64,000 bases of DNA from Candidatus Parcubacteria bacterium (GCA_963814275.1 CAWFCE010000002.1:1131263-1195262); one strand, 5' to 3'. Counted from the stretch's first letter, positions 1,450 to 45,137 are shown. Notes: a model not told the origin generated them from the letters alone. Numbers and translations are program-made.

Positions 1450-2412
1450 ATGGCCAAACAAAAACCGATAATTGAATATCTGACCGATTATCTCGATTAT
1501 TGCGAGATAGAAAGGGGTTTATCGGGAAAAACCCAGGAAAGCTATTCCCGGTTTTTGAATAAATTTTTCAATTGGCTACTCGAAAACAACCTTGACAAAC
1601 TGATTCCGGCCAAGCTGACGGCGGAGCATGTCTGGAAATACAAGGTCTACTTGTCGCGGCATGTCGACCCGCGCAGCCGCGCTACGCTTAAAAAATCGAC
1701 ACAGAATTATTATTTGATCGCTTTGCGATCACTGCTGGAATTCTTTGTCGAGTGCAAAACAGATTCGCTCTCCCCCACTGCCGTCAAGCTGGCCAAAGAT
1801 AAGGGCCAAAAACAGGTTAAATTTCTGACTCTCAAACAGCTTGATGAGCTTTTATCTTCACCAAAAACCGATACTTTGATCGGCCTAAGGGACAAAGCCA
1901 TACTTGAAGTATTGTTTTCGACCGGCCTGCGTGTCGCTGAATTGGCCCGGCTGGACTCCGAACAGCTCAAGCTACCCAGCCAGCCCAAGGAGATAGAACT
2001 GTCCGTTACCGGCAAGGGCGGGCGGGTACGTACCGTATATTTTTCCGCCCGTTCCGTCAAATGGCTTAAGGCGTATATGGACAAACGCGCAGACATTGAT
2101 CAGGCCCTTTTCATCAACTATAAGCCGGGGATCGAAAAAAGCGGGCAAGACCGTCGCTTAACCACCAAATCGGTAGAAGATATCGTAAAAAAATATGTCA
2201 AAATAGCCGGTTTGCCGGTTGACGCCACACCGCATACCCTGCGCCACTCCTTCGCGACCGACCTGCTTTCCCAGGGTGCCGACATTCGCCTGGTACAGGA
2301 ATTTCTCGGCCACCAGAATATCGCCACCACCCAAATATACACGCACGTAACGAATAAACAATTAAAGGATGTCCACAAGAAGCTTCATAGCGGCAGAAAA
2401 CTAAAGGACTAA
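1450..2412 (+). CDS. xerC: Tyrosine recombinase, XerC/XerD family
   Basis: C-terminal catalytic motifs HTLRHSFATDLL and LGHQNIATTQIYTHV. N-terminal core-binding domain. 320 aa. Confidence 0.92.
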   Translation: MAKQKPIIEYLTDYLDYCEIERGLSGKTQESYSRFLNKFFNWLLENNLDKLIPAKLTAEHVWKYKVYLSRHVDPRSRATLKKSTQNYYLIALRSLLEFFVECKTDSLSPTAVKLAKDKGQKQVKFLTLKQLDELLSSPKTDTLIGLRDKAILEVLFSTGLRVAELARLDSEQLKLPSQPKEIELSVTGKGGRVRTVYFSARSVKWLKAYMDKRADIDQALFINYKPGIEKSGQDRRLTTKSVEDIVKKYVKIAGLPVDATPHTLRHSFATDLLSQGADIRLVQEFLGHQNIATTQIYTHVTNKQLKDVHKKLHSGRKLKD

Positions 2413-5743: not shown

Positions 5744-6997
5744 TTAAATGATTTCTTTAAATTTATCCAAATACATCTCAGTCCGTTCTTTTCTGAGCGG
5801 GTGTACGCTAGCCGCCGTCTCTTCCAGCTTGGTCCATTTCCATCTGCTATGGTCCCAATAATTGATTTTAATATCCTTGTCGCTTCCTTTAAATTCGATA
5901 ATAGCCAGGGCTTGCTTCTGGCCTTTATAACCCGCGTGCTTCGCATATACCCCTCCCCGGTAATTACTGTCCGGTTTGAAAGTGTATTTGAAAAATTCCT
6001 TATCGACCGCTTTCATTTCGAATTTATCGGTGCCCAGTTCTTCCCTGATCTCCTTGGCGGCCGCTTCTTCAATGCGGCGCTTGCCAATCCCGCCCTGGGG
6101 GATCTGCCAGTGGCCTGGTTCGTCCTGCCGTTCGACCAAAAAAACATAATATACGCCATTTATCTGTTTGTAGACCAGGCAGGCAACATTTGGACGATAA
6201 AATAAAGGCAGAAAAAAACGCCATTTTATGAATATTACGGGAAAAACGGCCGCCGATCGGAATATCCTGAAAAGCCGCTTTTTCCTGTCTTCTATCCCCT
6301 TGCCCCGATGATAAAGCGCCCGCCAAAGCCATTCCAAGCAAAGTACGCGCATTAATTTCGGGGCCCGTTTCACCCTACCCGTCAGCAGATCGAAAGCTCC
6401 GCCTACGCCAATACCGATCTTGGCGGGTGAAAATCTATCTTTATTGCGATATAGGAATTTTTCCTGCCAGGGCGCTCCCAACGCGGCGAATACTATCTGC
6501 GGCTGCCATTCCCGAACTTTCTCCCACTCTAATTCCCTGCCCTCGCGATCGATGTCATATACGCGAAGCTTAAGACCCGCATACTTGGAACAAAGTAAGG
6601 CGCTAAGCTCCTTAGCGCCGGTCAACCCGCCGCGCCAATTGAATACTGCCACTCTCATATCTTTGCCGCACGCCGTACGAAGTAAATTATCAGCCAATTC
6701 GACCCCGGGGTAGCGGTGGATATGCCGGCCAAGAGCGATTCCGGCAAACCATAGCCCTCCGCCGTCCGCTACCGACAGATCGGCATGGTTCAAAATATAG
6801 AAAAACTCTTCATCTTCCCCAGCGATCAGAATAAATTCCGGGTTTACCGTAACTACCAGCCGGAAATCACGGTAACCAAAATAACCGTTCAGAATAGCGT
6901 CAGTATCATTGGGTCTGAAATTCCCTATATTTATTCCCAAAATATTGACTATCGGTTCAGATTTCATAGCGTCGGATAAGCGAATGATAAGCCCCAT
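5744..6997 (-). CDS. Fusion protein: WecG/TagA/CpsF (GT26) glycosyltransferase + Nudix hydrolase
   Basis: GT26 motifs GAPWQEKF, GVGGAFDLLTGRVKRAP and LEWLWR, then the Nudix box GGIGKRRIEEAAAKEIREELG. Alternative ATG at 6967. Confidence 0.8.
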   Translation of the reverse strand: MGLIIRLSDAMKSEPIVNILGINIGNFRPNDTDAILNGYFGYRDFRLVVTVNPEFILIAGEDEEFFYILNHADLSVADGGGLWFAGIALGRHIHRYPGVELADNLLRTACGKDMRVAVFNWRGGLTGAKELSALLCSKYAGLKLRVYDIDREGRELEWEKVREWQPQIVFAALGAPWQEKFLYRNKDRFSPAKIGIGVGGAFDLLTGRVKRAPKLMRVLCLEWLWRALYHRGKGIEDRKKRLFRIFRSAAVFPVIFIKWRFFLPLFYRPNVACLVYKQINGVYYVFLVERQDEPGHWQIPQGGIGKRRIEEAAAKEIREELGTDKFEMKAVDKEFFKYTFKPDSNYRGGVYAKHAGYKGQKQALAIIEFKGSDKDIKINYWDHSRWKWTKLEETAASVHPLRKERTEMYLDKFKEII

Positions 6998-7520
6998 TCG
7001 ATGTTAATTTCGATTCTATCAAATCGAAAGAATCAACGGTAAATTGTTGTTGCTCAATCTGAAGGGAAAGCCAATCCGAGGCAACAAAGGCCCGCCCCTT
7101 AACGCGGCCAGCCGTAATATGCGGTTTGAGAGCTTTCATATCCTTTGGTAAGAATTTCGGTTTTTCCAAATCTTCTTTAAGCATCTGCTGAAACCGAAAA
7201 ATATCTTTACCGCCGGTCTGCCGGCAGCCAACTGCCAGAACATGCGGATTAACATCATCGGGAAAACAAAATGGGCCGCTTAGCACAAAGCTGATCGGTC
7301 CGTTTTTGCTTCTATACTTATCTAGGCATTCTTCCAGTCTGTCCAGTGAATTTATAACTACGGTACCGATAAATAAAAGGGTAATATGGTATGAATCTGC
7401 CTTAACCATACGGACATTCTCGTTATTTTCGAGCGATTTTGCCTGAGTACCGATAGCTTCTTTGATATATTCGGGCAAGGATAATGCTAAAAATATACGT
7501 TTTGTTTTAATCTTAGTCAT
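6957..7520 (-). CDS. thpR: RNA 2',3'-cyclic phosphodiesterase (2'-5' RNA ligase family)
   Basis: Two HxT motifs (YHITLLFIG and KPHITAGRV). 187 aa. Confidence 0.85.
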   Translation of the reverse strand: MTKIKTKRIFLALSLPEYIKEAIGTQAKSLENNENVRMVKADSYHITLLFIGTVVINSLDRLEECLDKYRSKNGPISFVLSGPFCFPDDVNPHVLAVGCRQTGGKDIFRFQQMLKEDLEKPKFLPKDMKALKPHITAGRVKGRAFVASDWLSLQIEQQQFTVDSFDLIESKLTSNGAYHSLIRRYEI

Positions 7521-7600
7521 GTTTCTATTATATAGGAAAAGCTTGTCGGATGCAATTAATTATGATATTTTTATAATCAGATATTCGCGTTTAAGATAAT

Positions 7601-8617
7601 ATGATCAAAGCCAACTATTACAGCGGACTCGACGGACAGAAAGTGAGATGCGAGCTATGCCATCATCACTGTCTGATCGATCATGGCAATACCGGAATTT
7701 GCCGCACTCGCTTGAACAAAAAAGGGGTGCTATATTCCTTGGTTTATGGTTATCCGATCGTACAGAATATCGATCCAGTCGAAAAAAAGCCGCTATATCA
7801 TTTTTTACCCGCCAGCCAAACCTATTCGATCGGAACATTGGGCTGCAACCTAAGCTGCGCCAATTGCCAAAATTACGATATCAGCCAATTAAAGGATATT
7901 AACCGCAAACTTCACGGCAGTGATGAAGTTTCCCCCGAAAGGATAATCGACAATGCTTTGGGCGATGATTGCCGGTCAATCTCCTATACCTACAACGAAC
8001 CGACTGTTTTCGCCGAATACGCCCTGGCCATAATGAAATTAGCCCATGAAAACGGCTTAAAAAACATCTGGGTTTCCAATGGTTACATGTCTTCGGCCTG
8101 TCTAAACGATATACTGCCATATTTGGACGCGGCCAATATCGACATCAAATCTTTTGATGATGAGTTTTACCGGAATAACTGCGGGGCTTCCTTAGCCCCC
8201 ATACTGGAAAACCTCAAACGGCTGAAAGAAGAACAGGTTCATGTCGAAATTACCACCCTGCTGATACCTTCATTATCCGACGAGCCGGAAATGCTCCGCC
8301 AATTGGCCGACTTTATTGTAAGTGATTTGGATGCCGATACCCCTTGGCATCTTACCCGCTTTGCCCCGGAGATATCCTGGCAGCTGAAAGACCACCAAAC
8401 GACCGGTGAAGACCTGATTTACGAAGCGGTTGAAATCGGCAAAGATGCCGGCTTAAAGTATGTCTACGCCGGCAATCTTCCCGGCGACCAGTATGAAAAC
8501 ACATACTGCCCCAAATGCCGCGAAGTGGCCATCCGCCGTTTCGGCTACCACATCGAACGTTTCGACCTTAACGGACATTGCTCTTACTGCGACCGCAGCC
8601 TTGATATCATTGATTAG
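7601..8617 (+). CDS. amrS: AmmeMemoRadiSam-system-type radical SAM enzyme
   Basis: CNLSCANCQN (CX3CX2C) cluster, N-terminal VRCELCHHHC..GICRTR, C-terminal Cys pairs YCPKC..CSYC. Confidence 0.85.
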   Translation: MIKANYYSGLDGQKVRCELCHHHCLIDHGNTGICRTRLNKKGVLYSLVYGYPIVQNIDPVEKKPLYHFLPASQTYSIGTLGCNLSCANCQNYDISQLKDINRKLHGSDEVSPERIIDNALGDDCRSISYTYNEPTVFAEYALAIMKLAHENGLKNIWVSNGYMSSACLNDILPYLDAANIDIKSFDDEFYRNNCGASLAPILENLKRLKEEQVHVEITTLLIPSLSDEPEMLRQLADFIVSDLDADTPWHLTRFAPEISWQLKDHQTTGEDLIYEAVEIGKDAGLKYVYAGNLPGDQYENTYCPKCREVAIRRFGYHIERFDLNGHCSYCDRSLDIID

Positions 8618-8680
8618 CCTCTTATTTAGCCTATTATTTTGTATTTAAAATTAGCTAAATATCAGGCTTTTTTGTTACTC

Positions 8681-8709
8681 TTGACATAAACCGTTTATGA
8701 CGGTATATT
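8681..8709 (+). promoter_or_regulatory. Sigma-70 type promoter of clpB
   Basis: TTGACA (8681-8686), 17-nt spacer, TATATT (8704-8709). Confidence 0.65.
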
Positions 8710-8713
8710 TTAA

Positions 8714-8740
8714 TTAGCACTCTAATGTCAGGAGTGCTAA
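8714..8740 (+). promoter_or_regulatory. CIRCE operator (HrcA binding site)
   Basis: Exact consensus TTAGCACTC-N9-GAGTGCTAA, starting 5 nt after the -10 box. Confidence 0.88.
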
Positions 8741-8903
8741 CCATTGCATTCTTACACGGGTAAATTTTTCCCAAGATTAATTCTTATATTAGAAAAATAC
8801 AATAGCGAATTCATTTAATTTTAAACTATAATTTGATATAATTATAACATAATGCCCGGCGAATGAGATAAAAACCTTTTTCCCGGCCAGAATAATTAAA
8901 TAT

Positions 8904-11537
8904 ATGGATATGTTCAATAAATTCACTAACAAAACCCAGGAAGCCATTATAAACGCGCAAATTATCGCCCAGGATTATGGGCAGCAACAGATCGAAGCTC
9001 TGCACATATTGGCGTCTTTGCTGCAGCAAAGCGAAAGCCTGGTCAAGCCGATTCTGGAAAAGCTGAAGATCTCACCCGACCATTTGGAAGAGCAAGTATT
9101 CGCCAAAATCGCCAAACTGCCGAAATCCGGGCCAACGGGGCCGATCGGGACAGTACAGGGCACCGCGGAAGTGGCAATGGTGTTGGAGCGGGCTAAAAAA
9201 GAAGCGGACAAAATGGGCGATGACTATATATCGACCGAGCACTTGATGCTGGCCTTGATCGGAATCCGTTCGTCGGCCCAGGAGGTACTTATGCATCTGG
9301 GCGTCGAATATGATACTGTATTGAAAATACTGGCTGAATTGCGCGGAGCGCAAACGGTCGATACGCCGGATCCGGAAAATAAATACAAAGTTTTGGAAAA
9401 GTACGCCGTTAACCTGACTGAACAGGCACGCAAAAAAATGCTCGATCCCGTAATCGGCCGGGACAATGAAATCCGGCGTATTATGCAGGTCCTTTCCCGC
9501 AGGACCAAAAATAACCCGGTTTTGATCGGGGAGGCGGGTACGGGGAAAACCGCGATCGTAGAAGGTTTAGCGCAAAGGATCGTCAGCGGCGATGTTCCCG
9601 AAACCCTCAAAAACAAGGAAATCATATCGCTTGATCTCGGTTCGATGGTTGCCGGAGCCAAATTTCGCGGAGAATTCGAGGACCGCTTGAAGGCCGTCCT
9701 AAAAGAAATCAAAGCCCATGAAGGCAAGCTGATACTTTTTATCGACGAATTGCATACGCTGGTGGGAGCCGGCGCGTCCGAGGGTTCTATGGACGCGTCC
9801 AATATGCTGAAGCCGGCGCTGTCCCGCGGTGAATTGCGGGCTATCGGCGCCACCACCACCAGGGAGTATCAAAAGTATATCGAGCGTGATGCCGCCCTTG
9901 AGCGACGCTTCCAGCCGATCTATGTGGCGGAGCCGTCCATCGAGGATACGATAGCGATCTTACGCGGTATTAAAGAAAAATACGAAGTGCACCATGGGGT
10001 AAGAATTACCGACGATGCCATCATATCGGCGGCCAAGCTGTCGGCTCGCTATATCACTGACCGCTTTCTTCCCGACAAAGCGGTTGACCTGATCGATGAA
10101 GCGACCTCGGCATTGCGCATGGAAATCGATTCCATGCCCGAGGACCTGGACAGCCTTAAACGTGAGATCAAACGGTTGGAGATCGAAAAGGCCGGCCTGA
10201 AACACGATAAAAAGAATACCGGAAAAACGAAATCCCTGAACAAAAAACTGGCCCAATTGAAAGAACAATCGAACCAGCTGGAATTGCACTGGAATAATGA
10301 AAAATCCATCATTTCCCGGATAAGCGCCACCAAGAAGGAAATCGACGGCCTTAAGGCAAAAGCCGAGATCATCGAACGGCGCGGCGACGACCTGACGCAA
10401 GTAGCGGAAATACGCTACGACAAGATCCCCTCGCTCGAAAAAGATGTCAAAAAACACGAAAAAGCACTGGCTGATATACAGAAAAACGGCCAACGGATAC
10501 TGAAAGAAGAGATCGACGAAGAAGATATCGCCAAAGTAGTCTCTCGCTGGACCGGCATTCCGGTGTCCAAAATGCTGGAGTCGGAGATCAAGAAACTGGC
10601 TAAGGCCGAAATCGAGCTTAAAAAACGGGTAAAGGGCCAGGACGAAGCCATAACTTCGGTGGCTAACGCCCTGCGTCGTTCTCGCGCCGGGATCGGCGAG
10701 GAACAAAAACCGATTGGCTCTTTCCTCTTTGTCGGTCCGACCGGCGTCGGTAAAACCGAACTTGCCAAAACATTGGCCGGATTCATGTTCAATGACGAAG
10801 CCGCCCTGGTCCGCCTTGATATGAGCGAATTTATGGAAAAACATTCGGTGGCCAAGATAATCGGCTCTCCTCCCGGTTATGTCGGTTATGACGAAGGCGG
10901 ACAATTGACGGAAAAGATCCGACGCCGCCCCTATAGCGTGGTATTATTCGACGAAATCGAAAAAGCCCATCCGGAAGTGTTTAATATACTTCTGCAAATA
11001 TTAGATGACGGGCGCCTGACCGACTCCAAGGGTCGGGTGGTTAATTTCAAGAATACGATAATAATTATGACATCGAATCTAGGCAATGAAGTCATCAAGC
11101 AATATTCGATCGGATTCTCCGACGGGAGCGACGAAGTCAAGCAGAAAGAATACCGGAACGAAGAAATGAAAGAAAAAATAGACAAAATCCTTAAGGAACA
11201 TTTCAAATTGGAATTTTTGAACCGTATCGATGAAATCGTCATTTTCAAGAGCCTGGATCCGAAGTCGCTCGAACAGATCGTGGATCTGGAACTTGCCAAA
11301 GTGGAGAAACGGCTGTTCGACCAGAATATCACTTTGAAAATCGCCAACCGGATCAAGCATCATTTGGCGAAAAAAGGCTATGACACCACCTTTGGCGCCC
11401 GGCCCATAAAACGTCTGATACAAAACATGATTCTGGATGAATTAGCGCTTGATATTATTGAGGGAAAAATAAAAGATGGCGATAAAGTCACTATTGATAT
11501 GGGACTAAAGAATAATCTCCTGGTTAACGTCAAATAA
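8904..11537 (+). CDS. clpB: ATP-dependent chaperone ClpB
   Basis: 877 aa with a Clp N domain, two AAA+ modules ([18 protein letters not shown]) and a long middle coiled coil. Confidence 0.97.
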
Positions 11538-37680: not shown

Positions 37681-39282
37681 CTATCTCACCTTTGGAGTGA
37701 CATAAAACCCCAGCCGCCTTTTTCCACCGAGCATCAATCTTATTTGTGAGTCCAGTCCGGGAATGGAGCCAAAAATAATTATAGAGACCGGCAGAACGAT
37801 CCATTGCGCCAACATCCCCAGATATTTAATTGATGGATAATTTTTCGGTCGGCGCGGCAGTAACAAAGTGGATAGGACTGCTGATAGCACCAAGCCAAGC
37901 ATCGCCATGGTCATTAAAGTACGGGTCACAAGCGGCAGATTGGCCGATAATACGGTGGCATTAAACCGGTCGCCGCCCAAAAGCATGGGAAGCCAGCCGA
38001 TAATACCGATTATCAAAGCGTTTGTCGCCCAGGAATGGAATCCGTAGACCTGCACGAAAATACGGTTAAGGAATTTGCCTTTGGGCATGTTGCGCCGGTT
38101 ACGGATAAAATTAAAAATCAAATAAGGAATATTCTCCACTCCCCAGCCCCAGCGGCGCTGCTGTAGATACAACGAACGGGCGGTGTCAAAAAAGCCCTTA
38201 TTCATGGTCACATCCATGGAAACGGGAAAATGCAAGGGGTAAACACGGTAATCACCGCGATAAAAGCAAAAGCAGTGCCAAAAGATGCGGGAGTCTTCGC
38301 TTACCATGGTTTTTGACCAAAAGCCTATTTCATGAAGGGCTCGCCACGTCATCGAATGGGAAGAATAAGTCGCCAGCTTTTCCTGCCTGATTTGCTGCAT
38401 CATCTGCCAGAAGGTATTCGATGCCGCCGCGACCCGAGCGAAAAAGGGCGCCTGCCAAATATTATTATGATATACCGGAACCGGTTGGTAACTGGAACGG
38501 TAAGGATTCGGAACCGTCAAAAAATTATACGCCAGACAATGGAAATAATGCGGATAAATGATTGTATCGATATCGAATACGCTGACCAAAATACTGTCAT
38601 AATCCAGCCGCAAAGGATCGATCACGTCTTTTTTCAGCTGCTTGGCGGCCCAGGTCTGGTTTGCTCCTTTGCCTTTAAGCTCACCGGCAATGCCGTCGGG
38701 ATGGCGGGTCAAATAAAACCGCTTGAAATGTGTCTTGAATTCCTCGTATACCGCTTGTCCCGAATGCCATACTTCTTCCCCTCCCCTTTCTTCGATCGAT
38801 AATACCAGAATTATCCGTTCCCCGGGATAGGAGCAGTCCGCGATCGCCTTAATGCTTGACCGGATAACCTCATGGCTTTCGTTGACAACGGGAAAAATTA
38901 TTACTTGCACGATATCTTTCCACCTTAGGCCGCGGAGCGATAGGCATTCGCCTGCCTTGCATTGATTCGGCTCCCGATCCAAACCCCGGCATAGCGCTTC
39001 CCAGTCTTTATTGATATTGCGCTTCATGCGCCGGTAGGAAGCCACTAGGTGAATACCCAGAAACAATACCAAAAGCAGCCAGTAGACATCAAAGGCGATA
39101 ATGAAATACGCCAGCCAAACCGGCTGAAGATAAGAAAAGACGATTAAAACGACCAAAGTAAAAATGGATAAAAATCCGGGAACTATTTCCAAAAAACGGT
39201 ATAAACGGAAATCCTTTCCGGATAGATCATCGGCTTTTCCGACTTTTAGATAATCGATATTTGACATACTGTTTTTTATCAC
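37681..39282 (-). CDS. Membrane-embedded processive family 2 glycosyltransferase (cellulose/chitin-synthase-like)
   Basis: VFDIDT, SEDSRIF and QQRRWGWG (QxxRW) motifs, flanked by multiple TM helices. Confidence 0.82.
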   Translation of the reverse strand: MIKNSMSNIDYLKVGKADDLSGKDFRLYRFLEIVPGFLSIFTLVVLIVFSYLQPVWLAYFIIAFDVYWLLLVLFLGIHLVASYRRMKRNINKDWEALCRGLDREPNQCKAGECLSLRGLRWKDIVQVIIFPVVNESHEVIRSSIKAIADCSYPGERIILVLSIEERGGEEVWHSGQAVYEEFKTHFKRFYLTRHPDGIAGELKGKGANQTWAAKQLKKDVIDPLRLDYDSILVSVFDIDTIIYPHYFHCLAYNFLTVPNPYRSSYQPVPVYHNNIWQAPFFARVAAASNTFWQMMQQIRQEKLATYSSHSMTWRALHEIGFWSKTMVSEDSRIFWHCFCFYRGDYRVYPLHFPVSMDVTMNKGFFDTARSLYLQQRRWGWGVENIPYLIFNFIRNRRNMPKGKFLNRIFVQVYGFHSWATNALIIGIIGWLPMLLGGDRFNATVLSANLPLVTRTLMTMAMLGLVLSAVLSTLLLPRRPKNYPSIKYLGMLAQWIVLPVSIIIFGSIPGLDSQIRLMLGGKRRLGFYVTPKVR

Positions 39283-39401: not shown

Positions 39402-40058
39402 TTAAGTATTCACGTTTTTAATTTCACCTTTAAAAATACTGTTACCGACCAGATAAAGTATAAAGAAAAAAAATGTAAATATCAACCAATTCCTGAAATA
39501 CGGCCAATCATAAAAATATTTGCCTGCATCCCGCATTACCATAATCGGCGATCTCACTATGTCCCAGGAATTCCAACGATTGATCAGCCCCAAAAGCACG
39601 CCTAATGAAATCGTAGGAATTATTGCCGCAATAAAAAAATCGGACGCATGGCGGCCGTATAATTGATTTACGAATCGTTTCATGTCCTTGACCAGCCGGA
39701 CATAGGCATACCATCCAATCACGCTGTAAGAAAAAAAGAATAACGTCATCCAGACACTGTCCAGGCAATTATTATACTTCAGATCGCAAAATCCGTTCAA
39801 ATGCCGTATATCAACAATAACATAAGCCGAATTCGGTAAAAAAATCAGCCACAGTAAGGCACATAATAATCCTGCCAGTTTATCACCGAGACGCTTAAAG
39901 CGGGTGCGTCTGTAAAATTGCCGTAATATGGAAAACAAAAAAAATGGAATTGCGAGCAAAAACAAATTCCAAACTACATACACGAGAGAATAGTTGTTTA
40001 ACGCAAAAAATTGGTCCATTTCCGCAATGCAACCGCCATCAAATAGCGGTAAGGTCAA
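39402..40058 (-). CDS. DUF1361 family integral membrane protein
   Basis: VVWNLFLLAIPFF and IFLPNSAYVIVDIRHL motifs. Confidence 0.72.
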   Translation of the reverse strand: MTLPLFDGGCIAEMDQFFALNNYSLVYVVWNLFLLAIPFFLFSILRQFYRRTRFKRLGDKLAGLLCALLWLIFLPNSAYVIVDIRHLNGFCDLKYNNCLDSVWMTLFFFSYSVIGWYAYVRLVKDMKRFVNQLYGRHASDFFIAAIIPTISLGVLLGLINRWNSWDIVRSPIMVMRDAGKYFYDWPYFRNWLIFTFFFFILYLVGNSIFKGEIKNVNT

Positions 40059-40060
40059 AA

Positions 40061-42007
40061 TTATGTCAAATTTATCGCCTCTCCTTCGGGCAGCTCATTT
40101 TCATTCGCCGCTTTTTCTCCTGTTTGCCGAACCGGCGGCGTAGCGCGCACTTTCGGAGATGCCAAATTGGCGCTGTCTATTGGCTTATGCATCGCCGATT
40201 TTGGGCCTCTCGGCGGCCAGTTCGCCTTGTCAGCCGGACGCCCTTCCGCGGTATGATCTTTTTGCGCGTTATTGCCGTATTGACGCTGGTCTGGGCCTGC
40301 CATCCGGTTCGCTCCGTTCGAATCGTCCCGGAACGGTTTACCGCCTTGTTTCTTGAATGCGGCGGAAAAATCCTTCAAGCTGGTGAACTCTCCCAACTTC
40401 GCCTCCAGTTGCTCCAATTCTGACCTTTTTGCTTCTCTTCTACTGTCTAATTCGTTCTTTTTTTCCTGTTTGATCAGGTTCAGGCAATCTTTGCAGTAAA
40501 CCGGCCTTACGCCATCCGGCTTGAATGACGTTCTGGTATCTTTACCGCAGCGCGCGCAGACCGCTTCGTATTTATAGATTGAATCCGGGGCCTGGCGCGT
40601 CTCTTCGCGCGGCGCAGGTGCTTTGCTAACGGCAGGCATACTGGCCAAATCGTTTTTCGGCATGGTTTTGGGCTTGACAGGCGTAGTTCTGGCCGGTTTA
40701 CCGGGAGCAGGATCTTCGTTATTTTCATGCCAGCGGGATATCTTGTCCTCAACCGTCAGGCGGTCTTTAGCATAACGCTCGCGGCTGATCTGGATCACTT
40801 TTTCAGTATGGCCGGTCTTTTCGCTTTCCAATAATGGCGGCAGTCCGCGGGCGGAAAAAGGATTGGATGCGATGCCATCGATCATCAACTTAATGTAAAA
40901 TTCATATTTTGGCAGATTAACGATATCCTCGATCGTAAATACCGGAGTGAATTCCGGCTCCAGCTCTTCGGCATCGGCCGCGCCGACCCGAAAGACCACC
41001 ATGGTACCGACATTGCCGAACACCGCCCCCTTCACGGTATCGCCTAATTGTTCGATATACTGGTGTGCCATTATCAGGTTAAGATGGTACTTCCTTGCTT
41101 CAGACAGAATATTCGCAAAACTATCGGTGATAAAATTCTGTAATTCGTCGATATAAAGATAAAAATCCCGGCGTTCGCTTTCGGGCATATCGACCCGGCT
41201 CATTGCCGCTAATTGTATTTTGGTGATCATCATCGAACCCAGAAGGGCGGACGAGTCCTCGCCGATACGGCCTTTGCTCAGGTTCAGGATCAAAATTTTG
41301 CCGTTGTCCATAATATCGCGCATGTCGATTGTCGACTTGACCTGGCCGACTATATTACGGATAAGCGACGTGGAAAGAAACTGTCCGACCTTATTCTGAA
41401 TAGGAGAAACAGCTTCGGACGCGAACTTATCGGCATAGCCGGCGAATTCATTCACCCAGAAGGATTTTACCACCGGATCCTGGATCATCTCCACCACCCG
41501 TTTGCGGAATTTCTTATCCGCCAGCATTCTGGTCACGGCCAGAAGGGTCGAACCGGGGTAGTCAAGTATCGCCAGGATGGTATTGCGCAGGATGTACTCC
41601 AGACGCGGCCCCCACGAATCGGCCCAAAGCTTCTGGAACACGCCGATCAAGCCGGATGCCACCAAATGGCGGAATTGCGGATCAACATGCTCGACTACAT
41701 TGAATGCGATCGGATAATCGATGTCGGACGGGTTGAAATAAATTACATCGTTAATACGGTTACTGGGAATGTATTCAATGATTTTTTCCGCCAGATCGCC
41801 ATGAGGATCGACCACGGCCACGCCTTTGCCGGCGCGAATATCCTCAATGATCATATTCTCCTGAACCGTGGATTTCCCAACACCGGTTTTGCCGATCAGG
41901 TACATATGCCGCCGACGGTCGTCTAATTTTATGCCGAAACGCCGGCTTTTATTACGGAAAGTGGTTTCGGCAAACAAGGTTATTTTTTCATTGTCCATAT
42001 ATTTCAA
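40061..42007 (-). CDS. TraD/VirD4 (T4CP)-like FtsK/HerA-clade P-loop ATPase with disordered tail and CxxC-x17-CxxC zinc ribbon
   Basis: Walker A GKTGVGKST, VVDPHGDL, Walker B LYIDELQNF. No N-terminal TM helix. CARCGKDTRTSFKPDGVRPVYCKDC near the C-terminus. Confidence 0.8.
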   Translation of the reverse strand: MKYMDNEKITLFAETTFRNKSRRFGIKLDDRRRHMYLIGKTGVGKSTVQENMIIEDIRAGKGVAVVDPHGDLAEKIIEYIPSNRINDVIYFNPSDIDYPIAFNVVEHVDPQFRHLVASGLIGVFQKLWADSWGPRLEYILRNTILAILDYPGSTLLAVTRMLADKKFRKRVVEMIQDPVVKSFWVNEFAGYADKFASEAVSPIQNKVGQFLSTSLIRNIVGQVKSTIDMRDIMDNGKILILNLSKGRIGEDSSALLGSMMITKIQLAAMSRVDMPESERRDFYLYIDELQNFITDSFANILSEARKYHLNLIMAHQYIEQLGDTVKGAVFGNVGTMVVFRVGAADAEELEPEFTPVFTIEDIVNLPKYEFYIKLMIDGIASNPFSARGLPPLLESEKTGHTEKVIQISRERYAKDRLTVEDKISRWHENNEDPAPGKPARTTPVKPKTMPKNDLASMPAVSKAPAPREETRQAPDSIYKYEAVCARCGKDTRTSFKPDGVRPVYCKDCLNLIKQEKKNELDSRREAKRSELEQLEAKLGEFTSLKDFSAAFKKQGGKPFRDDSNGANRMAGPDQRQYGNNAQKDHTAEGRPADKANWPPRGPKSAMHKPIDSANLASPKVRATPPVRQTGEKAANENELPEGEAINLT

Positions 42008-42069
42008 GGTTATTTGAATATTTTTTGGTTTAGATATCTTCCATACTTAGGGTATCCGAGGATACATTG

Positions 42070-43620
42070 TCAGGCAAACGGCAGATTTTCGGGCGGCTGG
42101 CCTTTCTTGACTGCTGCTACCGGCGGTCTCGCGCCAGGTTTAACCGAAGCCACCGGTCCGTCATCCCAGGGCAAGCGTTCTCCCGCGGCCGGCTTGGCCG
42201 CTTTCGGCGGAATAGAACCGGACTCGCGTCTCCTCGATACCGCCGGCTCCGTTAGCGGTTCGCCCGGAGGCCCGATCTCGTCGAAAAATGTCGAGCCGAA
42301 CACCTCTTCACCGACCGGCAGGCTCATTGGCGGTTCCGCTTTACGGCCTGGCGCTTTTTGGATCAGCGGGGCCTTAACAACCGCTTCGATCGGGAAATGC
42401 CAAAGAGTGGCCAGCTCGTCGATCGTCATGATCCTCCTTGTTCGGCCGCGCGTGCCGCTTCTGGATTTATAGGCAGACATGATACGATTTTTTTTTCCGT
42501 TTATGACCGAATCAACGAAAAAATAACTTGCCCGCGTTGCGGTGCGCTCCATATCCGGCCGCAAATTGTTCAGGTCCAGATCCATAAACTGCTTCATATA
42601 GCCGACAAAGCCGTTTACTACTTTTGGCTTGTTCATCACCTCTTTCCTTGAGACATAAATGAAACGGTTTTTGACCTCAAAACCCAGCTGTGAGGTTTTA
42701 TGCTGTATTGCTTCCACCTGTTTCTTCTCCTTGGGCTTAAGCTGGAGCATCTTAAGCGGCTCTTCAGCGGTTGTTTCCGCCGCAGAGCCCCAGCCGAACG
42801 GTGAACTCAAGAGCTGGTCAGAGGCTTCCGACAGAAGGCCGAAAATCTCACTGAAAAATTTGCCGAATATCCCGGATTTTGCCTTGGTTTTTTCGCGCAG
42901 TATTTTCCTTACCTCATTTTCCCGTTCGTCCATCCAGTCAAAACCGGTCGGATATACTATCATCTGGTACCAAAGCTGTTCCCCATTTTTTAAGCTGCTG
43001 CAAAGGTCCATCAAAGACGCCATTGGATCTTTGAAATTGGTTTCTGGCCGGCCGAACTCATCGCCGAAGGCGGAATAGGTTTTGATCGGATAAGCGTCTT
43101 TTTTGGTATAAATGAATTCCGTCCCCCAAATATCCCACTCCTCATCGGGAAACCGGGAAGGTATATTTTCGGTATAATCGTCAACTTCCGTGATTTCCGC
43201 GTCCGGGTATTGGGAATATATGGCGGATTCCACCAAATCGCGAAAATGCACCGGTGTCCAGATCAAAAACTGGGTATACCCGTCAATACTGACTATTTCG
43301 AAACTAAACCCGAGTTGGAACCGGCATTCCCAATATTTTTCGATAAGATTGAAAGTGCCGTGCGCTCCGCCGAAATAGGTGAACAAATTCTCGACCGCCT
43401 TGACCGACTGTTCGTTGCCGCGCGGGATATCGACGGCCAGCAGAACACGCTGGACCGTAGCGTCATATTGTCCGCCGCGGTATTCCTGCCATAATAAAAA
43501 CGCGCCCCATACCATTGTTGCCGCAATCGGCATCCATCCGAAATTTACCAACAACAAATACAGCAATTGGTCTGCGGGTAAAGCAAATAAGGACTGAATG
43601 GAGCTAAGGTCTATGCTCAT
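42070..43620 (-). CDS. Hypothetical membrane protein, partner of the T4CP-like ATPase
   Basis: N-terminal TM segment(s) LLYLLLVNFGWMPIAATMVWGAFLLW, a ~370-aa globular part, and a P/G/A-rich tail. 62 nt upstream of the ATPase gene. Confidence 0.75.
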   Translation of the reverse strand: MSIDLSSIQSLFALPADQLLYLLLVNFGWMPIAATMVWGAFLLWQEYRGGQYDATVQRVLLAVDIPRGNEQSVKAVENLFTYFGGAHGTFNLIEKYWECRFQLGFSFEIVSIDGYTQFLIWTPVHFRDLVESAIYSQYPDAEITEVDDYTENIPSRFPDEEWDIWGTEFIYTKKDAYPIKTYSAFGDEFGRPETNFKDPMASLMDLCSSLKNGEQLWYQMIVYPTGFDWMDERENEVRKILREKTKAKSGIFGKFFSEIFGLLSEASDQLLSSPFGWGSAAETTAEEPLKMLQLKPKEKKQVEAIQHKTSQLGFEVKNRFIYVSRKEVMNKPKVVNGFVGYMKQFMDLDLNNLRPDMERTATRASYFFVDSVINGKKNRIMSAYKSRSGTRGRTRRIMTIDELATLWHFPIEAVVKAPLIQKAPGRKAEPPMSLPVGEEVFGSTFFDEIGPPGEPLTEPAVSRRRESGSIPPKAAKPAAGERLPWDDGPVASVKPGARPPVAAVKKGQPPENLPFA

Positions 43621-43919: not shown

Positions 43920-45137
43920 TTATTGATTATTTGTTTTCAAATTATACCGTCCGCTTTCTTTGGCGAATTTATCCTTGTTCATAAGAGCCAGGATAATCGT
44001 GGCTTTTTTGACCAGTCTTTTTTCCAGCACCCGATCGATAATTTCGTCGCGCGAAAGAGGTTCGCTGCTTTTTTCCAAAATCTCTTCAATCACATCGGAA
44101 ACCGTCCCTTTGCGGTATCCCCATTCCTTGAGGCCATAAAGCCCGCGTCCGACCAATACGTATTTGTCGTCCAAAATAAGTTCGTTGTGGACAGTCGCGG
44201 CGTTCGCCTGCTTGCTGTCAAAGGCGATCTTATTGATAATATCGGCAATTTCCCCGAAATGAAGAGGCTGTTTATTGTTTGACAGGACCAGATAGATCTT
44301 GTCGTTGATCGTCTTCGGATTGATTTCCCGTGAAGTATGAGTACCCCAGTGGCCGAATTTGTTTTGTTCGATCCTCCGGGCCGCTCTTAACAATGAATAT
44401 AATACTTTGTTATTGTTTATCAATTCCGGGTCTTCGGAAAACAAATCGCTTTTCAGTATGCGGGCAACATCCAGACTGCCTTCGAAACTGACCTTCTCTT
44501 CGTGCTTTTTATAGCTATCAAGCGAACGGATCAGATCGATAATTTCCCTGGTGGCGTGTATTTTTTCCGCTTTCTTTATATTGGCCAGAAGTTCCTCGAT
44601 CAGTTCTTCCAGATGTTCGATGTCCTGGAACTTAAGCTTATAGGAATCTTTGAAATGCCGATGGTTATTGAGCTCTTCGAATTCCCGGTGCAACAGCTTG
44701 GTGATCATGAAATTGAGATAATTCTTGTGCGTCAGTTCGCTGTTTTGGCGCTTCGACAGACCGTTCATCGAATAACCAACCAGAAGGTCAAGCATATACT
44801 CCTTCTCCACCAGTCCTCCATGTTCTTCCAGAAGCTGGTATATGACCTTTCTTAAAGTCGAGATGTAGTTTTCCAAATTAGCCAAAAGCTGGAGCTTCTT
44901 GACGCTCGATGTTTCGATTTGGCGAATTCTTTCGCGGGTCAGCTTATGGGCGGCGCCGATCGACTCGAGCGTTTCTTTGCCGCTGCCATGCAATCCATAG
45001 CGGCGGACAAGCACGTCCCGCTCCCGTTCGGTCAATTCACCGAACAGGTTATTAATAATCTCTACTGCGTCCAGTTTCGCCACCTCCTCGGCCTTTTGAT
45101 TGTCGATAATTTGATCGAGAATTGAGACAGTGTCCAT
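43920..45137 (-). CDS. Sigma-70 region-4 domain protein with C-terminal HARE-HTH / winged-helix domains
   Basis: LTERERDVLVRRYGL....TLESIGAAHKLTRERIRQIETSSVKKL (sigma region 4). Later IYLVLSNNKQPLHFGEIADII...DDKYVLVGRGLYGLKEWGY (HARE-HTH). Confidence 0.75.
   Translation of the reverse strand: MDTVSILDQIIDNQKAEEVAKLDAVEIINNLFGELTERERDVLVRRYGLHGSGKETLESIGAAHKLTRERIRQIETSSVKKLQLLANLENYISTLRKVIYQLLEEHGGLVEKEYMLDLLVGYSMNGLSKRQNSELTHKNYLNFMITKLLHREFEELNNHRHFKDSYKLKFQDIEHLEELIEELLANIKKAEKIHATREIIDLIRSLDSYKKHEEKVSFEGSLDVARILKSDLFSEDPELINNNKVLYSLLRAARRIEQNKFGHWGTHTSREINPKTINDKIYLVLSNNKQPLHFGEIADIINKIAFDSKQANAATVHNELILDDKYVLVGRGLYGLKEWGYRKGTVSDVIEEILEKSSEPLSRDEIIDRVLEKRLVKKATIILALMNKDKFAKESGRYNLKTNNQ

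Follow-up and report, generated by a model that had tools for sequence, protein, structure and literature searches.

Adjacent genes in a Candidatus Parcubacteria chromosome that very probably encode the two halves of a split, membrane-anchored VirD4-like ATPase

The locus described here lies in a 64,000-nucleotide (nt) stretch of DNA from Candidatus Parcubacteria bacterium (GCA_963814275.1, CAWFCE010000002.1:1131263-1195262), referred to below as the window, in whose numbering all its positions are given. It consists of two adjacent genes, one coding for a membrane protein of the DUF8128 family and the other for an ATPase devoid of a transmembrane (TM) segment. Judging from their sequences, the two products are very probably the halves of one split membrane-anchored protein related to VirD4, a coupling protein of type IV secretion systems (T4SS). 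The pair, the DUF1361 and GT2 genes that follow it, and the sigma-r4/HARE-HTH gene that precedes it are all located on the minus strand. A sequence-only reading of the locus had proposed a split coupling-protein-like translocase with a membrane anchor supplied in trans; the open reading frames (ORFs) it described, with their sizes, motifs, and gaps, the tail ribbon, the DUF1361/GT2 neighbours, and the terminator, are all present where it had placed them.

The first gene (42070..43620) codes for a protein of 516 amino acids (aa) with a precomputed assignment to PF26449 (DUF8128) and a structural model of a predicted local distance difference test score (pLDDT) of 81. The protein begins with a TM segment (aa 19-44, LLYLLLVNFGWMPIAATMVWGAFLLW, 43489..43566; Kyte-Doolittle 19-residue maximum 1.77), modelled as a helix, in which W29 and P31 are invariant in the alignment; it is the only one, although several had been allowed for. 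Then come a cytoplasmic alpha/beta globular domain (aa ~56-415, 42376..43455, pLDDT >90) and a disordered tail rich in proline, alanine, and glycine (aa 420-516, 42073..42363; 19, 12, and 10 of the 97 residues, respectively). The tail starts with GRKAEPPMSLP, an internal copy of a linker motif, and ends with a conserved C-terminal peptide, KKGQPPENLPFA (42073-42096). The linker motif is found twice in the protein (42313-42363 and 42073-42096), with ca. 80 disordered residues between the copies, and appears to have arisen by duplication at the time of the gene fission or after it.

The second gene (40061..42007) codes for the ATPase, a TrwB/VirD4/HerA-type protein with a zinc-ribbon tail. It comprises 648 aa from a TTG start, 62 nt beyond the first gene; gene callers begin instead with the ATG at 41998, for a product of 645 aa and a gap of 71 nt. 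No TM or hydrophobic segment was found in a hydropathy scan of the protein. The motor core (aa 1-424, 40727..41998) scores 45.2 bits with PF10412 against a cutoff of 20.5, the match covering profile positions 13-314 of 387, and ca. 200 columns are invariant in the ATPase alignment of 70 sequences. Both the Walker A (GKTGVGKS, 41870-41893) and the Walker B (YLYIDE, 41144-41161, within YLYIDELQNF) motifs are intact, and the protein also carries VVDPHGDL and the family-specific invariant sequence WGPRLEYILRN (41582-41614). In the model of the motor a helical insertion (aa ~107-231), with a pLDDT of only 57-83, is located where the all-alpha domain of TrwB-type proteins is expected. After aa ~425 the protein is mostly disordered or modelled with low confidence; this tail (40064-40726) is basic (net charge +8) and contains a treble-clef zinc ribbon CxxC-x17-CxxC (aa 481-505, 40484..40558; CARCGKDTRTSFKPDGVRPVYCKDC, CARCGK-x17-CKDC), matching PF23477 zf_Tbcl_2 (1.6e-12) and TIGR04272 (1.5e-12). 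The C-terminus is formed by a conserved acidic motif, ELPEGEAINLT (40064-40096).

The relationship between the two genes was revealed by natural fusions. Metagenome contigs were scanned for the invariant WGPRLEYILRN (at least 120 loci) and every ORF was profiled with hidden Markov models derived from both alignments; 67 ORFs, distributed over 61 of the 120 listed loci, match the DUF8128 and the ATPase profiles within one reading frame. Independent public gene calls include 727-aa proteins of Woesebacteria and Gottesmanbacteria with PF26449, PF10412, and PF01935, with or without PF12696. In view of the 61 loci and of these calls, it is unlikely that the single-chain ORFs are artefacts of assembly or of frameshifts. 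Among the complete genes in the listed metagenome loci, form F1 (~720-790 aa, 33 genes) has no TM segment, a reduced DUF8128-like domain, and no tail, while form F2 (826-1043 aa, seven genes) comprises the TM segment, the full DUF8128 domain (profile positions 23-450; 130-200 bits), the motor (650-715 bits), and a tail. Form F3 (~825 aa, seven genes) is a TM-bearing paralogue, often situated in tandem upstream of F2, and form F4 (>1050 aa, four genes) has a long C-terminal tail. The split form, with two genes as in the window, was found 12 times, and a few loci have the ATPase core only.

In the fused proteins the junction reads ...EELAS(I/L)(Y/F)HLP...WAGSKKGEPPxNLP(I/L/V) on the N-terminal side, followed by 5-10 residues and then, on the C-terminal side, by (I/L)TxF(A/G)xTxFR..FGIK..DRR. 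Its counterpart in the window is divided between the end of the DUF8128 protein, ...KKGQPPENLPFA*, and the start of the ATPase, MDNEKITLFAETTFRN..FGIKLDDRRR (the start reads MDNEKITLFAETTFRNKSRRFGIKLDDRRR), and the gene boundary therefore falls exactly at the inter-domain linker of the single-chain protein. Both the fusion/fission relation and the exact junction are direct observations. PPxNLP(F/I/V) ends nearly every DUF8128 protein, including those whose gene is not linked to that of the ATPase, i.e., in class A as well as class B of the synteny classes described below. In a neighbour-joining (NJ) tree of the motor domains, which is rough, carries no support values, and is a weak point of the argument, all the split and unlinked forms group together in a single clade; its sister is F2, and F3 and F1/F4 branch off outside. 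The tree indicates that a single fission of an F2-like ancestor probably took place; it would have occurred at the inter-domain linker in the ABY1/Falkowbacteria-like lineage to which this genome belongs. With fused homologues in frame, the gene boundary at their linker, and an ATPase devoid of TM segments, the proposal of a split translocase anchored in trans is borne out.

The single-chain DUF8128-ATPases of Patescibacteria have the same two domains as the window pair, a motor 50-62% identical to that of the window, the same WGPRLEYILRN and Walker motifs, and the PPxNLP linker; F2 shares, in addition, the N-terminal TM segment of the first gene product of the pair. The window differs from them in having two genes, in the ca. 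80-aa P/A/G-rich spacer with the duplicated linker motif gained by the first half and, in comparison with F1, which has no such tail, in the CxxC-x17-CxxC tail of the second.

Two further observations concern the fused forms. F3 lies directly upstream of F2 in loci L105, L113, L149, L151, L186, and L189, often with a conserved 168-aa ORF between them; at these tandem loci SecD/SecF genes are located convergently downstream and TGT upstream, F3 is the more divergent, and F2 has ~860-990 aa. The tandem might indicate a hetero-oligomeric motor. The acidic C-terminal motif of the ATPases follows the pattern E-L-x-E-G-E-x-I-x-(F/T), with ELxEGEEIxF as the consensus of the ATPase alignment, and it also ends the F2 fusions of loci L105 and L119 (...KLEDGQTVKF, ...LEDGEVIKVEE), whose tails have no zinc ribbon. 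This motif may be a docking peptide.

Each half is homologous to members of a large family, and the locus can no longer be called an orphan, with more than 2,000 DUF8128 and more than 8,000 ATPase relatives. PF26449 is precomputed for this exact protein and for nearly all of its top 120 homologues; the assignment was taken from precomputed annotation, and the null result of the Pfam-A copy scanned here, which was without this recent model, is uninformative even at E = 10. The DUF8128 profile is represented by 2,336 clusters at 50% identity and in at least 587 species-representative genomes. The top 120 relatives of the ATPase are 63-83% identical to it and all have the same zinc-ribbon tail; its NCBI name is 'type IV secretion system DNA-binding domain-containing protein'. 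The pair had been considered uncharacterised, which is correct in that no function has been experimentally characterised (no papers on DUF8128 or PF26449 were found in a literature search), but not in that the family is catalogued, as DUF8128, under the NCBI name, and in PMC12102498. Thus a widespread and catalogued family was known already, and what is new is its gene-fission form, not a new kind of machine.

By its sequence the ATPase is a VirD4/TrwB-like coupling-protein motor. The motor matches the type IV coupling protein (T4CP) families PF10412 TrwB_AAD_bind, PF12696, PF02534, and TIGR03743, and also DUF87, and the best PDB sequence match of the ATPase is TrwB (1e9r, E 4.5e-6). In Foldseek the motor model matches HerA (4d2i, 2.5e-8), TrwB (7e-8), Cag-beta (3e-7), and the C-terminal domain (CTD) of VirB4 (8e-5), and DndH-C is also grouped with it. 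No match to PF01580 (FtsK_SpoIIIE) was found, nor any FtsK structure among the top 50 fold matches, and the profiles of VirB4-type motors (AAA_10, P-loop_TraG, CagE_TrbE_VirB) did not match the ATPase. HHalign gave an E of 2.4e-5 for the motor against TrsE (VirB4) and of 1.5e-3 against TrsK (T4CP), in alignments limited to the surroundings of Walker B and non-discriminating. As for the features expected of a T4CP, the TrwB-type P-loop nucleotide-binding domain (NBD) of the FtsK/HerA superfamily is present, whereas the N-terminal TM segment is not on the ATPase chain but on the separate DUF8128 protein, being in cis in F2 and F3; association with T4SS or relaxase genes was seen for single-chain relatives only, and not in the window or in 86 related loci.

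The anchor provided by the DUF8128 protein is more than a TM segment, most of the protein being the cytoplasmic domain of ca. 360 aa whose best structural matches are VirB4 chains. The Foldseek search of the PDB with the model of the product of 42070-43620 returned R388 TrwK/VirB4 chains as all its 13 best matches (E 2.4e-4 to 1.7e-2, probability 0.87-1.0), at a twilight-zone similarity (TM-score ~0.3, 8-9% identity) and followed by generic ferredoxin-like folds. The motor model is matched by the structures of CTD-only VirB4, TrwB, and HerA, none of which is listed among the matches of DUF8128, so the VirB4 match of the latter is probably to the N-terminal domain of VirB4, which the globular domain of DUF8128 apparently resembles in its modelled fold. 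The domain order of the fused proteins, with the N-domain preceding the motor, is also that of VirB4. Comparison of the DUF8128 sequence profile with solved structures gave a chance-level match only (E 1.4). HHalign detected no similarity of DUF8128 to TrsD of pSK41 (probability 0.7%), a colinear but weak one to the N-terminal extension of the Embleya T4CP described below (E 0.0023, probability 12.6%), and no match to the N-terminal extension of a Bradyrhizobium relative.

The VirD4/TrwB/TraD proteins, such as TrwB of R388 and Cag-beta of H. pylori, share with the window motor the TrwB-type NBD, with a putative helical insertion in the model of the latter, and the motor has relatives in T4SS/conjugation clusters. 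In contrast to these proteins, the motor chain of the window has no two-helix N-terminal TM domain, and a single TM segment with a ca. 360-aa, apparently VirB4-like domain is present on a separate polypeptide; moreover, the pair is chromosomal, vertically inherited, and highly conserved, has a zinc-ribbon tail, and lies near no relaxase or T4SS genes. VirB4 (TrwK of R388, VirB3-VirB4 fusions) has in common with it the order of membrane anchor, N-terminal alpha/beta domain, and RecA-like motor, and the split of VirB4 into TrsD and TrsE (TraC-like plus VirB4) is a precedent for the N-terminal part being a separate protein (PMC12102498). However, in its sequence the window motor resembles T4CPs, no relationship of DUF8128 to TrsD is detectable, and a genuine VirB4 is encoded separately in the loci of relatives. 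In Foldseek the motor reaches its lowest E-values with HerA (of the HerA-NurA and HerA-Sir2 systems; 4d2i and also 9x1m, 8yhx, and 8j4u), and it has the DUF87 match in addition, but the window pair is membrane-tethered, with no NurA, Sir2, or other partner in the window or related loci and no HAS-barrel identified. FtsK/SpoIIIE and TcpA are members of the same superfamily, membrane-anchored and provided with a long flexible linker, and a division cluster is also the setting of the window locus; unlike them, the pair has neither an FtsK_SpoIIIE domain nor FtsK as a top fold match, and TcpA matches at E 0.4 only.

Patescibacteria depend on other cells, and in the one species amenable to genetics epibiotic growth requires the chromosomal T4SS (PMC12102498). 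The second ATPase of this T4SS is a loose end, abundant and mostly encoded far from virB4: 5,713 VirD4-type T4CP homologues were counted in 2,918 of 3,035 Patescibacteria genomes (96%), and their exaptation 'cannot be ruled out' (PMC12102498). Judging by domain content, these homologues are probably the DUF8128-ATPase family. The text of Wang et al. (2023) makes no mention of VirD4 or T4CP.

The link of the family with T4SS comes from its single-chain members. In L210 and L211 (Microgenomatia) the single-chain gene is located inside a T4SS locus beside dnaA/dnaN, in the order M23 hydrolase, VirB4 (P-loop_TraG/AAA_10), TraC-like, and PrgI, followed by the divergent DUF8128-ATPase, NadD, a giant protein, and six T4SS_pilin genes; such an arrangement occurs in at least 6 of 37 F1 loci (strict tblastn). 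An Embleya plasmid carries an 812-aa homologue (31% core identity, 400-aa N-terminal extension) as the T4CP of a cluster coding also for PrgI, a VirB4-like ATPase, a replication-relaxation protein, and NlpC/P60, and on a Priestia megaplasmid a single-chain gene combining TM, DUF8128-like, and ATPase parts lies near a T4SS pilin gene. The other contexts are different: F2 and F3 are situated beside SecD/SecF and TGT, F4 beside YidC and SPFH, then GroEL, and other F1 loci have housekeeping neighbours; RRF and SHMT also occur among the neighbours of the family. The earlier statement that there is no T4SS context thus stands for the window but not for the single-chain relatives found inside T4SS loci. 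The family therefore descends from T4SS-related proteins and in some lineages is also located with T4SS genes, but most of its members, including the window pair, are not encoded together with a T4SS.

The T4SS locus of L210 and L211 is compact, with its six pilin genes (PF18895) in tandem and a separate 218-aa TraC-like protein (PF26593) preceding VirB4; an N-module, either free-standing or fused, thus belongs to each of the two ATPases of the system.

The window pair itself is located in a one-strand chromosomal division/cell-wall (dcw) cluster, not inside an integrative and conjugative element. The cluster comprises MraY, FtsW, MurG, MurC, an ABC exporter, MurB, the sigma-r4/HARE-HTH protein, DUF8128, and the ATPase, followed by DUF1361, GT2, a P-type ATPase, DivIC, a PPIase-like protein, a DD-carboxypeptidase, FtsE, and FtsX. 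The remainder of the window is occupied by housekeeping genes, its composition is uniform, and the pair has been inherited vertically on the chromosome. Genes for a relaxase, VirB4, PrgI, or pilins were not found in the window, nor was an integrase gene near the pair. A single recombinase is encoded in it, a tyrosine recombinase of the XerC/D type (Phage_integrase with a SAM-like N-domain; 1450-2412, plus strand), 38 kb away from the pair. An origin of the pair from a mobile element was rejected on the grounds of the uniform composition, the housekeeping neighbours, and the distance of this Xer-like enzyme.

The synteny of the pair was surveyed in 80 genome loci fetched via the DUF8128 alignment, of which 70 were informative upstream and 68 downstream. 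Upstream of DUF8128 the most constant neighbour is the sigma-r4/HARE-HTH gene, which 63 of the 70 loci have. Directly downstream, 30 of the 68 loci (class A) have the ATPase, usually followed by DUF1361 and GT2, while the remaining 38 (class B) have no ATPase gene adjacent to DUF8128. Three ATPase orthologues on long contigs all have DUF8128 directly upstream, and one of them retains the whole DUF8128-ATPase-DUF1361-GT2 block despite an entirely different upstream context. In metagenome loci full-length zinc-ribbon-tailed ATPases, nested within the split clade of the NJ tree, are found beside GT2 with no DUF8128 upstream; the simplest interpretation is that these ATPases belong to class B genomes and are the partners missing from the DUF8128 loci there. 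GT2 remains beside the ATPase even where DUF8128 is unlinked, and DUF1361 is often a part of the conserved block. The two genes are therefore not the fixed module they had seemed: the four-gene block recurs and the pair is adjacent in the class A genomes, but it is unlinked in the more numerous class B, and ATPases of the same type accompany GT2 alone. As DUF8128 and the ATPase are often but not always encoded side by side, they must be able to act in trans.

In class B (L016, L035, and 36 others) the place of ATPase-DUF1361-GT2 is taken, ~100-7000 nt downstream of DUF8128, by an envelope-related block in the order GT4 (~397 aa), a DUF4012 protein (~840 aa), a DUF11/Big-like surface protein (~667 aa), TGT, and pyruvate kinase.

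On balance, the window pair is best explained as a split coupling-protein-like ATPase of the Patescibacteria type that may partner a T4SS. Its first half would be a single-pass anchor with a ca. 360-aa cytoplasmic VirB4-like domain, ending in the old linker peptide PPxNLPF, and its second half the FtsK/HerA-superfamily motor with the Walker motifs, the putative TrwB-like helical insertion, and the basic zinc-ribbon tail. The halves would reassemble non-covalently, the PPxNLPF peptide and the globular domain probably packing on the N-terminal strands of the motor. By analogy with the family, the product would be a membrane-tethered hexameric ring, like that of TrwB, HerA, or VirB4, delivering a macromolecule to an envelope channel, or passing it through one, at the expense of ATP. 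The likeliest partner would be the chromosomal T4SS-like apparatus of Patescibacteria (VirB4, TraC-like, PrgI, and VirB2-like pilins), because single-chain members are encoded inside such loci. Owing to the kinship with DNA-translocating ATPases and to the basic zinc-ribbon tail, nucleic acid or nucleoprotein is the favoured substrate.

Cooperation with a T4SS, taken alone, is put forward tentatively, since several observations weigh against it. A search for VirB4, PrgI, TraC-like, and pilin genes of the Patescibacteria type found none in either the window or 86 related genome loci, and among the 120 listed loci only six are near virB4. Of the published T4CP homologues 148 of 5,713 lie near virB4, and the family occurs in more genomes (2,918) than VirB4 does (2,417), with about two copies per genome (PMC12102498). 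S. epibionticum has been reported to require its T4SS but not its T4CP homologue (cited in PMC12102498). The motor is 50-80% identical across the forms, which is far above what is usual for T4SS components and fits a housekeeping role. As to the dispensability in S. epibionticum, in classical systems T4CPs are not required for pilus biogenesis, so that it is compatible with coupling to a T4SS.

A role with the T4SS is nevertheless favoured over that of an exapted, T4SS-independent housekeeping translocase, handling DNA or nucleoprotein at the membrane or exporting or inserting envelope components, which appears somewhat unlikely. This explanation draws on the dcw location of the window pair, between MraY, FtsW, MurG, MurC, and MurB on one side and DivIC, FtsE, and FtsX on the other, on the Sec, YidC, or RRF neighbours of the other forms, on the very strong conservation of the motor, and on the wide occurrence of the family, mostly far from virB4 (PMC12102498). 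Gene order in reduced genomes is, however, weak evidence, the contexts vary by lineage, no alternative channel partner is consistently adjacent, and the relatives within bona fide T4SS/conjugation clusters show an ancestral role linked to T4SS. It is quite unlikely that the whole family is a distinct ancient branch of the VirB4/VirD4 radiation, a coupling-type motor that kept a VirB4-like N-domain and was recruited in Patescibacteria as a near-universal housekeeping translocase able to work without a T4SS, e.g., importing or exporting host-derived nucleic acid or nucleoprotein, with the N-domain and motor assembling in trans; if so, it would be an architectural intermediate between the two ATPases of T4SS.

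The N-domain also suggests a second assembly ATPase, i.e., a VirB4 paralogue split into N- and C-domains like TrsD/TrsE. The DUF8128 fold and the domain order of the fused form agree with this, as do the occurrence of a free-standing VirB4-N-terminal-like protein (TraC-like/TrsD) beside VirB4 in Patescibacteria and pSK41 (PMC12102498) and the better HHalign score of the motor with TrsE than with TrsK; yet it is improbable, since the motor matches T4CP and not VirB4 families, DUF8128 shows no similarity to TrsD, and a distinct bona fide VirB4 stands beside the single-chain form, as a separate gene in L210, L211, and L212. A division-linked DNA pump, an analogue of FtsK/SpoIIIE clearing or segregating chromosomal DNA at the septum, would suit a pair situated between murB and divIC in the dcw cluster and coding for an FtsK/HerA-superfamily protein with a membrane anchor, a linker-like tail rich in proline, and a basic tail bearing the zinc ribbon. 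It can hardly be expected in view of the missing FtsK matches in fold and Pfam, the annotated ftsK of TM7x, a Patescibacterium (PMC10768705), and the confinement of the dcw context to the split lineage. As the leading model, replacement of FtsK was ruled out by the first two of these findings. The persistence of the ATPase-(DUF1361)-GT2 block, kept through upstream change and through the unlinking of DUF8128, and the 2-nt gap between the ATPase and DUF1361 could speak for a motor exporting the polymer made by the GT2/DUF1361 products. No member of the FtsK/HerA superfamily is known to move polysaccharide, the linkage to GT2/DUF1361 is limited to the split lineage and absent from the fused forms, with the family and GT2/DUF1361 largely failing to co-occur outside ABY1, and the zinc ribbon and basic tail point to a nucleic-acid ligand, which makes this explanation very improbable.

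Returning to the split coupling-protein-like ATPase, the so-called T4CP homologues of Patescibacteria carry a large conserved N-domain, DUF8128, with VirB4 chains as its best structural matches, and it is this domain, not a simple TM hairpin, that would tether the motor. This bears on the divergence of VirB4 and VirD4, the family being a possible architectural bridge between the two. The natural split at the linker provides a ready domain dissection and a clean system in which assembly via PPxNLPF and function can be studied.

As regards the remaining features of the locus, an intrinsic terminator (43904-43876; 13-bp stem with 8 GC pairs and a T-run) separates the first gene from the upstream sigma70-region-4 plus HARE-HTH gene (43920..45137), whose transcription it ends. 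Directly after it lies a putative sigma-70-like promoter for the pair (43876-43848; TTGAAT-17-TATAAT preceded by TG). The upstream gene codes for a 405-aa protein of unusual architecture, with region 4 at aa 33-83, a HARE-HTH domain like that of the RNA polymerase delta subunit at aa 277-339, and no region 2. Downstream, the gene of the polytopic DUF1361 membrane protein (39402..40058; PF07099, 1.3e-25) starts 2 nt past the stop codon of the ATPase and is followed by that of the membrane GT2 (37681..39282; Glyco_trans_2_3, PF13632).

Several relatives deserve a comment. Many TPA 'binchicken' records of metagenome-assembled genomes titled 'uncultured Gammaproteobacteria bacterium' (L010, L013, L014, L021, and others) show the same synteny, with 45-57% identity to the window proteins; the titles look like defaults and are not to be trusted. 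In L207 (Priestia megaterium pFDU301A, 5762-9421) the gene is broken by ~1 kb after Walker B (FLYVDE), and then the motor resumes; the interruption could be an intein, an insertion, or a sign of a pseudogene. The ATPase match in a Miltoncostaea homologue bears the annotation 'LAGLIDADG family homing endonuclease', a hint that the family contains inteins. The closest relative found outside the candidate phyla radiation is encoded on an alphaproteobacterial plasmid of Sulfitobacter mediterraneus (L208, 6953-8140), among a recombinase and transposases; it is a 395-aa core-only ATPase with neither N-domain nor tail, 42.7% identical to the Patescibacteria motor, and may have been acquired by horizontal transfer.

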